Of a DNA stretch of 50,477 nucleotides, positions 1 to 6,000 are shown one piece after another; within the stretch, counting starts at the first letter, position 1; each line of letters starts with the position of its first letter. Position numbers: made by a program. The DNA comes from a virus (taxonomy: Duplodnaviria; Heunggongvirae; Uroviricota; Caudoviricetes): IMG/VR virus record IMGVR_UViG_2645727867_000002, one strand, 5' to 3'.

Positions 1-3000
1 CCCGTAACGCCTCTGCCACGCGCGTAACGTGACAGGGATTAAGGGTAAACTAACTGATTTTACAAGTTTTTATTTTACCCCACTTTCTTATGGGGCATAC
101 ATGGGACACTTTCAGATAGTCTTTTGTTAAGGAGTTCTATCTGTTCGTGATTGTTGTCTTTCATCCATGCTCCGTAAACATTGAATACCATTTGTGCGTT
201 TGTGTGGCCCATCTGGCTTGCGATAAAACTAGGATTAGCTCCAGCGGCAAGTGACCAGCATGCATAAGTATGCCTGGATTGGTACGATTTTCTGTGTCTC
301 AGACCTGCGCGTTTTAAGATACTTGTCCATGACTCCCTGATGGAGTCAACTTTGTAGTGAGGTCCAGACAACTGCTGCTGTTTTATTACCTGAGGGCTAA
401 AAACAAAAGTACATTTATGCACAGCTGTTCTCCCATATTCCCTCTGCTTTACCTCTACAGAATGTTGCTTTCCAAGCATGGTCATTTCCGCCTGGCTTTT
501 AAGAGCATCAATAGCTGGTTGAACCAGATGAATTGTCCTTCCGGTGCCAGCATCGGTTTTTGGTGGAGTGAATTCGCCAAGTTTTGTATAATTTCTACGG
601 ATGGTTATAGTCCTTGCTTTAAGGTCTATATCTTCCCATGCCAGCGATACCAACTCCCCGTGACGAATACCCGTGTATACAGCGAGAATCCACAGGTTTT
701 TTGTTTGTTGATGACGGCAGGCCTCAATAAAACGAATAAATTCGTCACGGGTGAGAGGATCTGGTTTTACCTTGGACTTTTTTAAGGGAGCCAGACCGTT
801 AAATGGGTTTCCTGAGGTATAACCATTATCTGTTGCAAATTGAAACATTCCAGCTATGGTTGTCATATAGTAGTTTACCGTGACCACTGAGCGCCCTTTT
901 ATGGAAGAAGTCTTTCCATTAGAAAGCTTTTGGTAACCGGTCAACAAATCTCTCCTTACGAAAAGTAAATCCTCTTTTGTTATGGATGAAACCAGTTTTT
1001 TTTCACCTAACATTGGTAACATGTTTTTAATTACTGACTGGTAACGGTTAAGTGCATTCGCACAAATCTCAATTTTCTTAAGGTCCAACCATTTTTCCGA
1101 AAGTGCCTTAACGGTTATCTCTCTTTTTCCCAGACCAAAGTATTTCAGGTTAGGGGAATTAGGGAACTGCGCGGCGTAGTCGAAACTCCCCATTCTGATT
1201 GCAAAACAAACAGAAGTGCGAAGCTCACCAGCGATCTTCCGGTTTTTGGCGGTGTCAGGAACACCGAGGTTTTCTCTGACACGTTTGCCATTATAGTGAA
1301 ACCATATACGGAGTGATCCTCCATGGTTTTCAACGCCTGTCGGGTATGATGCGTTACTCATAAAACCTCCCAGACGTCCAGGAGCATTAACAGGTTAACC
1401 GGAACTTGCATTTTTGGCACCTGGTTGTTTCTGGTTTTCGATCCATCGCATAATTTCTTCGATGTTGTATAGGCATTCACTGTAATGCCCCGGCTCACCT
1501 TCTACAGCGTAATGGCGGTATTCTTTTCCCTGCATCCATGACTTTCTTCTGGCTCGCTCGATGGTGCCAGGCTTTAGCCCTGTTGATGCAATGAGGACTC
1601 TCTCCGTACACCATTTGCTGGGGGTTATCTGATAGATGATTGTCTGCATGCCAACCTCATAAAACTTTCATCCACGGCAGTGGCACCACACTTCAAACAT
1701 TCGCTTCACATCTTCTGTACAACACGGTGTTGTTTATGCAGCGAACAATTTTTACCGGGTAACCGGCACTGTCGGTATACAGTTGTCCCTGATTAATCAG
1801 AGCGAACATTTTTTCTCCTGCTCTCTGAATAGTGAGAACTTCAGAGCCGTATGTTTGTAGCGGGTCCAATGCTGATAATTTCTGCTGAGATAAGCATCCC
1901 GGCAAGCCAGAGTTCTCCGGACAGGTCTTCATCCTGGCATATCAGTTCGCCAATATTAATGGTGGCCATGATATCCGTTTCCCCTGTGCGCTCATCCAGG
2001 ACTTCTTCATAAGGCAGCGTTGCGTACAGGCTTTCAATAGCGCAATTGATAACATCCAGTCCGGTCAGATTGCCGCCGACAGTAACTTCGAATGTTTCGC
2101 GGTATTCCCATAGTCCGAAAGTTAATCGAACGGTTTGTTTTGCCATGCGTCCGCACGACGTCAGATTCGGGTCATAGTTCATTATTTGCGGTTGAGTATT
2201 CTGGTTGTTCATCTGATTTTCCATTAACCCGGCGGTTTGCCGGGCGTGTAAGTTATTTAATCTGGATAAATGGTGTATTGGCACCGCTGGTCATGTATTG
2301 CGGCAGAGTACCGTTCCACTTGTTGATGGCTTCCAGCTCCATGACGCCAGGGTTCTGGCGCAGAGCTTCACCGCGTAAACGAATAGCATCGGCCTCGGCC
2401 TGGGCTTTTGTGCGAATCGCATCTGCCTGTCCGGCAGCTTCCGCGCGCAACATGTTAGCTTCCGCTTCGCGCTGTTTTACTTCCTGTTCGCGTTGCAGGG
2501 TTTTCTGGTTCGCCGTGACTTTGGCATTAATGCTGTCGATAACGGTTGGCGGGTACTCCGGCTTACCCACATATGAGAGACTCATTACCTGAATACCGAT
2601 GGGCGTCATTTCTGCCTGAATGTCTTTAAGAGCTGCATCCAGTAGTTCAGACTTCCCGCCGTCGATAAATTTGTCAGTGGTCATTTTGCTGGCCAGTCGA
2701 TTGAGTGCGTCGGCGATCTTCTGGCGCAGGTCAGTGTCGGTAATGTCATCCACGCCTTTGCGGTAGGTCTGAAACACCGTGGTAACTTTGGATGGATCAA
2801 CTTTGTAGGCAACACCGATGTGATAGCCAATGGTTGTGCCGTCACTCATCTGGAAACTGAACGGCTCATCGTAGGTCTTCATTTGTTTGAAGGTTGGGAA
2901 GATGTAAACTTCAGTATTCCAGCCAGTCCAGTAGCGACCAACACCGACCACCTCACCGACGCCTTTATCGTCGCCCAGTTTATTTACTTTGATGCCAACA

Positions 3001-6000
3001 TTACCGGGTTCAACGCGATCGCAGCCGACAAGGCCAATGGTCGGCAGAACAATGGCTAAAGCAAAAATAATTTTTTTCATTTTTTATCCTTAGTGAAAGA
3101 AAGACCCTTGTAAATGGCATAAATGCAGGGCGGGGTCAGAAACGCCAGTGCAAAGCCAGAAATAACTGCTATCGTATCCTTCATGGATATAAGGAACGGA
3201 ACGAGTAATCCGTAAATGCATGCGATAATTGCCAGTAAAATTACTATTGTGAAATACAGTCTCATTGGTATGTGGTATCCCGATATTTTTAACTGACAGA
3301 CAGCGCAATAAAGAGAATAATGATTTCTGTTATTGTCAGTACTGTGGCAAGGATTAAAAGCAGTTTTACTCTGCTTAAGTCACGGTTGCTTTTCATATAA
3401 ACGGTTAGTAAAAAACGGAAGAATTATATTCTTCTTAATATTTAATGTGTCACTGGCCTTCTGGCATACCATGAGTATTCAGGTCGTTAATCATTTCATC
3501 CAGAAGGAGTTCAAGCCCTTCTCGCCCCATGTCTGAAACAATGAAACCTTTATCTGGGTATGTAATGAGCATTTTCTGATAAAGAAATAGTGCTCTACCC
3601 ATTCCTTCTGCCTCGCCGTATTTTTGAATTAAATTCCATTCAATATACTGCTGTAAGGCAAACCGAATGGGGCCGGGATATATCGTCATAACCCCATGCT
3701 TCCCGTTATATATTACGGCGCGATCTGTTGTTCCGTGTTCATTCGGGACATCAATTGTGCCGTTCTTGTCTTCTTCTTCGTTGATGAATGTCGTCACATA
3801 CAACCATCGCCACTGGGCAACCTTCATCTCAACCGGAAGTTTTCCCAGTAATCCTGCTTCGTCAGCTTGCGCGAGACACTGAAGGATACGTAAACCTCGC
3901 ACATTAGGAGTATCGAATTCTCCAGCATCCAGACGGCGTATGGCGTCGTGATAATCAATAGTCATACTGCCTGTTTGTATACCATTGGCTGTTGCTTCAG
4001 CCTGGAATTCAGCGTATTGCATGAAATTTATTCCTCATCTTCATCTGCTGGTGCAATAACGTCATATCCTGCCTTTTCTGCAATAAACAGGAATGTTGAA
4101 AGATTTCCTACAAATTCATCGTCATGAACATGACGAATTAATACTACTTTCCCGTTTTTGATGGTCAGCAATACTCTGGTTTGTTCGTGTTCTGCTGTTT
4201 TCTGATGCATTATTATCTCCCGTATGCTTTACGCAGAAACAAGCAGGCAATATGCATGTGATTTTTCCCGTGTTGTGCAATAAGGCAGGCTGTTTTGTGT
4301 GATGCCTTATGTTTTATAAAAGTCATAATAAAACCTCCTGTGGATTAAGTGTGTGATAATCCCCGGCGATTAAGCCGTAATATAGTATCTGGAGATGACT
4401 TGTTCTATTTAACTGGATAGTTCTTTTTCAGCTGCTGCTTCAGCATAGCAACGTGCAAATTCAAGAACTTCATCACCTGTTCTTTTTATTGCGTCGTTGT
4501 CTGACATTTGTAATACGATAACTGCGCATAATAAATTATGGATATTGTTTGCAAAGGAATCCGGTGCCAGGCATAAGCCTTCATACTTATCATGGATATT
4601 GCCAGTCATTGTTGCTGCTCCTTTGCTTCTGATTTTCCCGTTAACAACCACATCAGGTCACAATTAAGAGCACTGGCCAGTGGTACTATCTGATCAGCTG
4701 GAACTTCATGGATGCCGCATTCCCAGTCGTTTATGGGGTCACTATAGGTATGAATCATGCGGGCAAGATCAGATTCGGTTAATCCCAGTTTTGTACGGGC
4801 GCTTTTGATGCGTGCGCCAATACTTTCCACATGGACTTCAGGCACATTTACGCGAATAACTGACTCGCTGTTTTTTTCACTCAGCAGAGAAAGCGGATCG
4901 CATCCTAGGACGTTTGCCAGGGGGATAAGCATGCTGATGGTTGGTTCGTACTCTCCGCTCTCCCACTGGATGATAATTTCTTCATCGAGATCGAGCAGCC
5001 TGGCGAGTTCGGCAGTTGTTAAGCCGCAGGCTTCACGTTTGGTGCGTATGCAGGCTATCTTGTTGCCTGAGCGAATAGAATGTTGTTGTTTTGTCGATGC
5101 GATCGCTAAAGCATATTCATGAGTAAATTCCAGCACATCAAACCCAACCTCTTTTAATCGCGTATCATCCAGGAGGTTGAAGGTGCGAACAGCACTGAGC
5201 AGGTTTGCGATGGTTAATGCAAAAGAATCGAGGTCTAAATCATCACATAAAACCTTGTTGTAAGTATTGAGGCTACATGTTTTTGGTGTTGTTTGTAAGG
5301 CTTCCATATCATCACCATGCAATTCTAAGTTGAAGTTAATCAATATATAATTGATGGTGAGATATTATGTATCAGGAAAACGCGTGTCAATCAAAAATTG
5401 ATAAACTTGATTTTTTTGTAATGTGTGACCAATAATTTAATTTAAAATCAATAACTAACCAAATCTGTTGATATTGAATGGTACCGATGAGATGACTTTT
5501 GACTGGATATATAGCAGCGCCATTCCCTCTTTTTCGATGCTCCATGGCTGATAGTTGGGATTGTCTGATAAGACCATGATCTTGCTTCCAATTTTTTGAA
5601 GTCGTTTGATGTAACATTCGCCATCAAAGCAAAATGCATAAATGCCATCACCGTCAAAATAAGTTACTGTTTTATCTAAAAACAGCAAGTCCCCTGGGGA
5701 GATTGTTGGGGCCATGCTGTCCCCTCTGGCGTTACCAATTTCTATGTTCTTGAATGCTCTGTTACCGACCAGGCGGCGGGCATATTCAGGATCAAGTTCT
5801 ATTGAGCGTACAACATCAATTAGATCTCCCCGAACATGAGTTCCGTCGCCGCAGCTGAATTCAACATCCAGTACATTGAACACAACGCTGTCTTCTCTTG
5901 TATGGTGTTTTTCAGCTGAAGAAAGTGTTGATGAGGTGTCTTCACCCAAAAACCAGGATTGTGGATAACCACTAATTACTGATAGTTGTGCAAGTTTATC

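Follow-up and report, generated by a model that had tools for sequence, protein, structure and literature searches.

In a virus genome from the IMG/VR collection (record IMGVR_UViG_2645727867_000002), we identified a two-gene cassette in which a gene for a small protein with two membrane helices is coupled to a gene for a lipoprotein of the SPFH/Band-7 type. We refer to the whole 50,477-nucleotide stretch as the window; the cassette lies on its minus strand. It is a widespread, self-contained and mobile phage cassette, and nothing here shows it to be an anti-phage defence system. We propose that its products form an accessory SPFH cage that resides in the inner membrane, faces the periplasm and acts during lytic growth, with gating of the FtsH protease as the leading candidate for its activity. 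The anatomy of the cassette is well supported and much firmer than its function, for which we favor this proposal tentatively and at slightly less than an even chance.

The longer gene encodes an SPFH lipoprotein

Three consecutive open reading frames (ORFs) occupy this part of the minus strand, at 3289-3396 (35 amino acids), 3077-3265 (62 amino acids) and 2253-3080 (275 amino acids). All three have the coordinates and strand given in a preliminary description of the window, and the gene map of E. coli 94-3024, which carries an identical copy, agrees with that description in placing them in the leftward operon. The 275-amino-acid product had been called an SPFH lipoprotein with an LVGC lipobox, and our searches bear this out. 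It matches the Pfam family PF01145 (Band_7/SPFH) with E=8.2e-31 and 107.8 bits (cut-off 23.6), over residues 22-208 and positions 2-176 of the 176 in the model, and it matches phrog_200, labeled 'lipoprotein', with E=2.9e-114. The protein is 99% identical to L05 of phage phiP27, which is annotated as a 'putative serine protease' or 'lipoprotein', and 62% identical to gp20 of phage N4.

The N-terminus, MKKIIFALAIVLPTIGLVG followed by C20-D21, is a textbook lipoprotein signal, with an MKK n-region and a hydrophobic core. The signal peptide (residues 1-19) and the lipobox L17-V18-G19-C20 are encoded at 3021-3080, with the Cys20 codon at 3021-3023, and LVGC conforms to the pattern [LVI][ASTVI][GAS]C. 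A library of 1.84 billion cluster representatives supplied the 150 best representatives of the family; 109 of them have a lipobox at this place, and its cysteine is invariant or at least 90% conserved in four of our alignments (A1, A2, A3 and A5). The codon that follows (3018-3020) specifies Asp21, the +2 residue of the mature lipoprotein. In E. coli, aspartate at +2 is the canonical Lol-avoidance signal, which retains lipoproteins in the inner membrane. This residue is present in 101 of the 105 enterobacterial homologues that have a lipobox. By the established rules of Lol sorting, Asp21 predicts that the SPFH lipoprotein is retained in the inner membrane.

Near the C-terminus is the motif K-W-N-G-T-L-P (residues 254-260, encoded at 2301-2321). 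W255, G257 and P260 are invariant in a 67-sequence alignment, as are the same tryptophan, glycine and proline in alignments A4 and A5. Since the curated HflK and HflC models score far under their thresholds (see below), we class the family, on its sequences, as an SPFH subfamily of its own, marked by an invariant C-terminal W-x-G-x-x-P motif.

The prophage in the window is of the Shiga-toxin type and comes from a human isolate, and a lipoprotein encoded in it might serve in lysogenic conversion, reaching the outer membrane or vesicles and acting on the animal host, for example as an agonist of Toll-like receptors 1 and 2 (TLR1/2). A possible parallel is PM0222, an 'HflK/C-like' protein of a Pasteurella multocida prophage, which was found in outer-membrane vesicles and activated TLR1/2, and whose deletion attenuated virulence in mice. 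Activation of TLR2 is, however, a general property of bacterial lipoproteins. The aspartate at +2 speaks against export to the outer membrane in E. coli, an obligatory inner-membrane partner and natural fusions to it (see below) tie the SPFH protein to the inner membrane, and most carriers are virulent and environmental phages. On these grounds, we regard a role in conversion or virulence as very improbable.

A two-helix partner is encoded upstream of the SPFH gene and is sometimes fused to it

The 62-codon ORF (3077-3265, minus strand) encodes a protein of the N4 gp19 family (phrog_1130, 'membrane protein'; E=2.8e-23). Two hydrophobic helices account for nearly its whole length, separated by a short turn and followed by a basic tail, which makes it a predicted inner-membrane protein; alpha-helical hairpins sit in the inner membrane only. 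Alignment of 32 partners together with the N-termini of fusions (see below) delimits the turn as P23-F-L-I-S27-M-K-D-T31 (3173-3199), corresponding to the family motif P-x-[LM]-[IV]-S-[AS]-x-[DS]-[ST]. By the positive-inside rule, the turn would be periplasmic and both ends of the partner cytoplasmic.

The partner and SPFH genes share an ATGA (3077-3080), which contains the TGA of the former and the ATG of the latter, and a good Shine-Dalgarno sequence for the SPFH gene, AAGGA, lies within the partner ORF. This is an arrangement typical of translational coupling. Overlaps of 1-8 nucleotides between the two genes are also found in N4, P88, phiE125 and Gekk3-15; in N4, the overlapping genes encode gp19 (68 amino acids, 'membrane protein') and gp20 ('lipoprotein').

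A homologous partner ORF lies directly upstream of the SPFH gene in N4, GAP31, P88, a P1-like phage, Cyrano, Aeromonas phage Gekk3-15 and Burkholderia phage phiE125. The shared design is a helix, the sequence G..xP-x-[LM]-[IV]-S-[AS]-x-[DS]-[ST]..V..G, a second helix and a basic tail. We built a partner profile from the upstream ORFs of relatives and scanned it over all ORF segments of the loci that we fetched. When viral SPFH proteins were clustered into lineages at 70% identity, 47 of 52 lineages had a profile match in the ORF that immediately precedes the SPFH gene, and only six matches fell elsewhere among 10,143 ORF segments. The profile also matched upstream in 59 of 77 loci from bacterial genomes. 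The two genes are adjacent or overlapping everywhere we examined except in the Vequintavirinae, where a 54-amino-acid hydrophilic ORF lies between them (L085:2332-2496, Cronobacter phage GAP31_160).

The exceptions that have no partner were mainly a Bacteroidota lipoprotein clade, a Sutterella clade with a plain membrane anchor, and Bruynoghevirus; the absence of a partner from the first two indicates that the requirement for it is clade-specific. The mature N-terminus of the Bacteroidota proteins reads C-I-S-T-V-P-A-G (loci L256, L264, L271, L275, L276, L280, L287, L289, L290, L292, L295 and L306), and the membrane anchor of the Sutterella proteins (L300 and L304) is uncleaved.

About 18 of the 150 best representatives are partner-SPFH fusions of 320-390 amino acids, in which the partner forms an N-terminal extension. 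The fusions are continuous ORFs at the DNA level and have the order helix 1, helix 2, basic linker, signal-like helix, SPFH domain. In an alignment of the fusions (A3), the equivalents of the turn proline and serine are invariant, as is the lipobox cysteine. This invariant cysteine in mid-chain suggests that signal peptidase II might cut the fusion into a three-helix membrane piece and a lipoprotein. Fusions were seen among the representatives P0160-P0263 and P0306-P0413 and in the loci L091:710-1807, L092:8001-9149 and L176:1270-2352; most of the start codons inside them have no Shine-Dalgarno sequence.

Taken together, the fusions, the translational coupling and an adjacency that is almost universal show that the two proteins act as one unit, consistent with the membrane module of SPFH protein and coupled two-helix protein that had been noted earlier from the window alone. 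A search for a third recurrent neighbor family beside the pair, across 73 SPFH lineages, found none. We therefore define the cassette as the partner motif between two helices, upstream of or fused to an SPFH protein that has a lipobox and a KW[ND]GxLP tail. The window contains every element: the P23-F-L-I-S-M-K-D-T31 turn, the lipobox and K254-W-N-G-T-L-P260, with the ATGA overlap joining the two genes.

The preliminary description had also raised an NfeD-type partner. We rejected this identity (PF01957) for the 62-amino-acid protein, which consists almost entirely of two hydrophobic helices and has no match in Pfam or NCBIfam, no sequence match in the PDB at E ≤10, and no sign of an NfeD/OB-fold domain in these searches.

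The predicted structure resembles subunits of SPFH rings and cages

The AlphaFold2 (AF2) model of the 275-amino-acid protein has a mean predicted local distance difference test score (pLDDT) of 81.5. It consists of a signal helix, a beta-rich SPFH domain with helices, a 65-residue helix and a less confident tail. The SPFH domain proper, taken from the Pfam envelope as residues 22-208 (2457-3017), has strands within residues 20-94 and 163-175 of the model and helices within 96-158. The long helix, residues 178-242 as assigned by DSSP (2355-2549), is rich in alanine, glutamate and glutamine and aligns with helical regions of HflK and prohibitin. In the model, it appears to be the counterpart of the coiled-coil wall of SPFH cages.

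Foldseek searches with the model returned full-length matches to HflK/HflC (7vhq, 7wi3), prohibitin, erlin and stomatin, with E=5e-14 to 1e-10. Whole-chain partners also included 9cz2, prohibitin 1/2, erlin 1/2, flotillin, QmcA and the shoulder of the major vault protein. The matches to HflK/C, prohibitin, erlin, stomatin and flotillin span 240-300 columns, and all of the matched proteins are subunits of closed rings or cages. Assembly of the phage protein into a ring or cage is likewise suggested by its conserved helix and the invariant W255, G257 and P260. When the PDB was searched with a sequence profile, HflK was nearest (3e-6), followed by QmcA (6.9e-6). The HflC and HflK models were the top hits in NCBIfam and were both sub-threshold, at 22.7 bits for TIGR01933 (cut-off 159.4) and 24.7 bits for TIGR01932 (cut-off 134.4), which places the protein outside both equivalog families.

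E. coli HflK/HflC (7vhp, 7vhq, 7wi3, 9cz2) is thus the best match in both structure and sequence. The likeness covers the full-length layout of SPFH domain, long helix and C-terminal tail, the arrangement in two genes and, by our predictions, the topology, with an anchor in the inner membrane and the SPFH domain in the periplasm. The phage protein is nevertheless not an orthologue, as identity in the structural alignments is 16-18%. While each HflK/HflC subunit has its own N-terminal helix, the phage anchor would consist of the lipid on Cys20 and a separate 62-amino-acid two-helix protein. The second phage gene encodes this hairpin rather than a second SPFH paralogue, and the pair is carried by phages.

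SPFH-NfeD operons (QmcA-YbbJ, 8z5g; YqiK-YqiJ; stomatin-STOPP) likewise place an SPFH gene beside a gene for a small membrane protein, and QmcA is as close in sequence to the phage protein as HflK is (E=6.9e-6). These operons differ from the cassette in two respects: the phage partner is just a helical hairpin with a conserved Pro/Ser turn, without an NfeD/OB-fold domain, and its gene precedes the SPFH gene instead of following it. In addition, the SPFH domain of QmcA is cytoplasmic, whereas that of the phage protein is predicted to be periplasmic because of its lipobox, the aspartate at +2 and the order of elements in the fusions, where the signal-like helix comes after two helices and a basic linker. 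Of the two E. coli systems found by structure searches, HflK/C and QmcA, it is HflK/C that has this periplasmic orientation.

The direct homologues of the cassette are N4 gp19 (membrane protein) and gp20 (lipoprotein), phiP27 L05, and the families phrog_1130 and phrog_200, which have the same upstream two-helix gene and the same overlap. N4 gp19/gp20 and phiP27 L05 do not differ from it in kind; as annotated ORFs, they name the family without explaining its function.

The cassette lies in early operons of unrelated phages

Three unrelated temperate backbones have the cassette within early lytic operons that are under repressor control. In the window, this is the leftward early operon of a phiP27-like prophage. 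In P2-like P88 and related E. coli prophages, it is the early operon, between cox and the replication gene A. In P1-like phages, the cassette lies in the C1-controlled ban operon, in place of the plp-upl-tciABC genes of P1. Among virulent phages, the N4 pair is directly downstream of the RNA polymerase II (RNAPII) genes gp15/gp16, and the GAP31 pair is among genes for nucleases and nucleotide metabolism, regions that we take to be early or middle. Metagenomic phages carry the cassette beside genes for replication and nucleotide metabolism.

The stretch of the ban operon between tRNA genes is a swap site, as a comparison of P1 (L226, 69,472-70,929) with Ro157c2YLVW (L086, 62,265-63,309) illustrates. 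We considered whether P1 plp/upl is the same cassette and rejected this, as P1 has plp-upl-tciABC where P1-like phage-plasmids have the SPFH pair.

A promoter-like sequence in the window, TTGACA-17-TAATAT (5362-5390, minus strand), sits just downstream of the cI-like repressor gene and is a candidate pL for the cassette operon; it was found by consensus scan, with 10 of 12 matches, and a consensus match alone is not functional evidence. The same scan, which is weak evidence either way, found no minus-strand promoter-like site in the 184-nucleotide gap upstream of the cassette and no terminator-like site after the SPFH stop codon, where there is a GC-rich hairpin without a T-run. The totals of promoter-like and terminator-like sites are at or below the shuffled expectation. 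Because the cassette appears to be transcribed with the early lytic operon, we expect its products to act in the lytic phase.

Placement also bears on a reading in which the cage holds holin-type proteins, or shores up the inner membrane and the proton-motive force, and thereby delays lysis. SPFH cages act on membrane proteins in general, and the Kayvirus gene for MbpS, a distant homologue with an identity of only about 25%, lies between lysK and tgl, within the lysis module. N4, which carries the pair, is known for lysis inhibition; the searched text of the N4 lysis study makes no mention of gp19 or gp20. Early genes surround the cassette in the window, N4, GAP31, P88 and the P1-like phage, and the lysis genes are far away. 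We accordingly give a role in lysis timing or membrane integrity little probability.

The cassette is widespread, accessory and in some bacteria resident

Using tblastn, we found the SPFH protein in 661 of 50,697 phage records (about 1.3%). Virulent carriers include N4, N4-like Klebsiella phages, the Vequintavirinae (GAP31, PVP-SE1, SSE121) and Bruynoghevirus; phiCbK-like, crAss-like and jumbo phages are also represented. The temperate carriers include phiE125, P2-like P88, and P1-like and SSU5-like phage-plasmids. At 24-28% identity, matches extend to Kayvirus, Enterococcus phages, Bacillus phages and haloarchaeal viruses. Among 5426 complete E. coli genomes, 737 (about 14%) have the SPFH gene, with about half of its places on phage-plasmids. 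The cassette is accessory: only some Bruynoghevirus phages have it, and Stx1a phages of the same backbone as the window have other genes at its site. When we retrieved loci, a very diverse alignment had no conserved stretch to search with and a narrower one worked; scans with single proteins gave just near-identical relatives.

In Dyella and related Rhodanobacteraceae (Dyella, Rhodanobacter and Luteibacter), the pair occupies two conserved chromosomal loci with ordinary cellular neighbors and no phage genes. The first (L230, L234, L237, L255, L258 and others; SPFH gene at about 3001-3850) has BlaR1/BlaI-type, hemerythrin and ribonucleotide reductase small-subunit genes as neighbors, and the second (L232, L245, L263, L266, L278) has aldo-keto reductase and TetR genes. 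These non-phage copies indicate that the module can work without any other phage gene, and as residents they point to a generic membrane function.

This distribution bears on the suggestion, made in the preliminary description, that the module acts in superinfection exclusion or abortive infection. In that case, the cage and its partner would block genome entry by other phages or abort their infection, either in the lysogen or early in lytic growth. The predicted location, in the inner membrane and on its periplasmic face, would suit a block to DNA entry, and the pair behaves as an accessory mosaic element that is swapped among close relatives (the Stx1a backbone, plp-upl-tciABC of P1, some Bruynoghevirus). 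Certain neighbors also fit: N4 gp18 (L084:2407-2721), just upstream of the N4 pair, is annotated as 'superinfection exclusion, similar to P22 gp17', and an Acb2/Tad1-like gene of a metagenomic phage (L091:218-520), from the anti-CBASS/anti-Thoeris sponge family, is two genes upstream of a fused partner-SPFH gene. Presence in virulent phages is compatible with exclusion as well, since virulent phages too encode early exclusion proteins, such as T4 Imm/Sp and T5 Llp. T4 Imm/Sp, the T5 lipoprotein Llp, P22 SieA and TP-J34 Ltp are all small inner-membrane or lipoprotein products of phages that act at the envelope; none is an SPFH protein, and scans of PHROG and PADLOC detected no relationship between them and the cassette.

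Set against this, neither the SPFH protein, the 62-amino-acid protein, the 35-amino-acid ORF nor three neighbors had a match in PADLOC-DB v2 at E ≤0.1, and there was no match to PHROG families annotated as exclusion. In the consensus scan of the window, the cassette had no promoter or terminator of its own, and, unlike a moron, which would drive its own expression, it lies within repressor-controlled lytic operons in all three temperate backbones. The carriers have unrelated receptors and injection machines, which, together with the Dyella copies, argues for a generic membrane activity, and no phenotype has been published in the literature that we searched. We therefore consider exclusion or abortive infection rather unlikely. 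The narrower ideas of a defence role in the lysogen and of recurrence in defence islands found no support: there were no PADLOC matches, the cassette is abundant in virulent phages and lies in lytic operons, and Dyella has resident copies. The defence interpretation is not refuted either.

A proposed periplasm-facing cage

Our preferred reading, a periplasm-facing inner-membrane cage that acts in lytic growth, would work as follows. The cassette would be transcribed with the early lytic, pL-type operon and act in lytic development; it would not serve conversion in a quiescent lysogen. The sequence shows that the 62-amino-acid two-helix protein is made first and the 275-amino-acid SPFH protein after it by translational coupling. 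The SPFH protein would be exported, lipidated on Cys20 and kept in the inner membrane through Asp21, with its domain in the periplasm. As in all SPFH proteins of solved structure, its subunits would oligomerise, here through the long C-terminal helix and the KWNGxLP tail, and so build a ring or cage over the inner membrane on its periplasmic side. The partner would supply the membrane-spanning part, which HflK and HflC have in their own N-termini, and would contact the base of the cage through its conserved Pro/Ser turn. The cage would enclose a patch of inner membrane and alter the fate of the inner-membrane proteins within it.

The leading client, in this proposal, would be an FtsH-type membrane protease or quality-control machinery, gated as it is by HflK/C; general stabilization of the membrane of the infected cell is the fallback. 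FtsH is a candidate because HflK/C is the closest solved relative and shares the predicted topology, and because FtsH already matters to phages, as seen with CII, CIII and Xis of lambda. A further argument, weak and positional, is that lambda keeps the gene for its FtsH inhibitor, cIII, in the equivalent operon.

Several points weigh against this proposal. That the protein oligomerises, carries a lipid, stays in the inner membrane and is expressed in lytic growth is in each case inferred. The link to FtsH is one of resemblance only, with HflK/HflC scores far below the cut-offs, and QmcA, prohibitin, erlin and stomatin match almost as well as HflK/C. Distant SPFH homologues occur in haloarchaeal viruses, whose hosts, to our knowledge, have no FtsH. 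N4 gp20 has tyrosine instead of aspartate at +2. Lysogens could express the cassette by read-through of the repressor transcript. In addition, an HflK/C-like protein of a Pasteurella prophage was found in lysogen cultures and in outer-membrane vesicles; if it is a relative, it would argue for expression in lysogens and for a location other than the inner membrane. Earlier authors suggested that such proteins might influence lysogeny through FtsH, and the same authors noted the poor fit with obligately lytic carriers. Our literature search returned no experiment on any member of the family, just annotation remarks or speculation.

A bolder version is that the pair is the prototype of a widespread but unrecognised group of periplasmic SPFH cages used in conflicts between phages or between phage and host, for example to shield the inner membrane from injection by competitors or from membrane-attacking abortive-infection effectors, with the fusions matured by signal peptidase II. 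We think this doubtful. If signal peptidase II does split the fusions, this would be an unusual route of polyprotein maturation.

The gene itself is already known as phiP27 L05, and its family is phrog_200, which includes N4 gp20; the literature search found no published function for the cassette family. Several features are, as far as we know from that search, undescribed: the dedicated two-helix partner, which is not of the NfeD type and has a conserved turn; the fusions that keep an internal lipobox; the resident Dyella copies; the predicted lipid-anchored topology facing the periplasm; and the consistent placement in early lytic operons. SPFH cages (HflK/C, prohibitin, stomatin, flotillin, erlin) attract structural interest at present, and few of their clients are known. 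A compact cassette found in the tractable N4, P1-like and lambdoid phages offers a convenient system for asking what such cages do. Its carriers span all phage lifestyles, and the cassette could also reveal a general route by which phages take over or protect the host inner membrane.

A 35-codon frame upstream of the cassette

The hydrophobic 35-amino-acid ORF (3289-3396, minus strand) had been listed, with low confidence, as a possible further member of the module. The frame is open and its product hydrophobic, as described; its coding status is equivocal, with no clear coding signature, and it lies outside the conserved cassette. Of 90 loci, 55 matched this stretch, mostly IMG/VR phiP27-like contigs, and yielded 31 distinct sequences. 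The 35-codon frame is open in 30 of these, the remaining one having ATA in place of ATG, and all insertions and deletions fall outside it. Polymorphism is as dense within the ORF (0.22 per site) as in the non-coding DNA on either side (0.26 and 0.17), and the changes comprise 18 non-synonymous and 9 synonymous ones. The ORF has no Shine-Dalgarno sequence and no family match in Pfam, PHROG, PADLOC or NCBIfam, and it is never annotated by the Prokaryotic Genome Annotation Pipeline (PGAP). Its sequence is restricted to 133 E. coli genomes with a phiP27-like backbone, as compared with 737 for the SPFH gene. Polymorphism like that of non-coding DNA, the narrow range and the lack of a third conserved neighbor rule it out as a third component of the cassette.

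Within this ORF, on the opposite strand, is a sigma-70-like site, CTGACA-17-AATAAT (window 3293-3321, plus strand; 10 of 12 matches). It is probably due to chance, since the region as a whole has fewer promoter-like sites than shuffled sequence would lead one to expect.

The prophage setting

The part of the window that we compared with E. coli 94-3024 (2253-3400) is 100% identical to it. In that strain, the cassette belongs to a phiP27-like prophage adjoining mlrA, where it is oriented leftward and lies between the side of the cI-like repressor and xis/int. Window 1300-4700 is 98% identical to phiP27-like Stx2-converting phages. Read leftward, the order in the window is the cI-like repressor gene (5455-6174, minus strand, from the ORF listing and the gene map of the relative), the promoter-like site, a helix-turn-helix protein gene, three small genes, the cassette, a DUF5406 gene, a DUF4222 remnant, xis and int. 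GC content is about 50-53% in the SPFH gene and about 37-39% in the small hydrophobic ORFs, and is unremarkable. A search for structured RNA in the 184-nucleotide gap and elsewhere in the operon gave no Rfam match at E ≤1.

Stx1a phages (L224, Stx1_14040, 2,070-4,922) have the int/xis end and the genes upstream of the cassette in common with window 1,650-3,450. The place of the cassette is taken in them by about ten other small genes, one of them for a MarR-type regulator, which indicates that this part of the leftward operon is a mosaic accessory region. The DUF5406 gene, annotated at window 1841-2212, begins 40 nucleotides past the SPFH stop codon, beyond the GC-rich hairpin. Between it and xis, in the region of window 1693-1800, RefSeq records a truncated DUF4222 pseudogene (L001:5453-5557).

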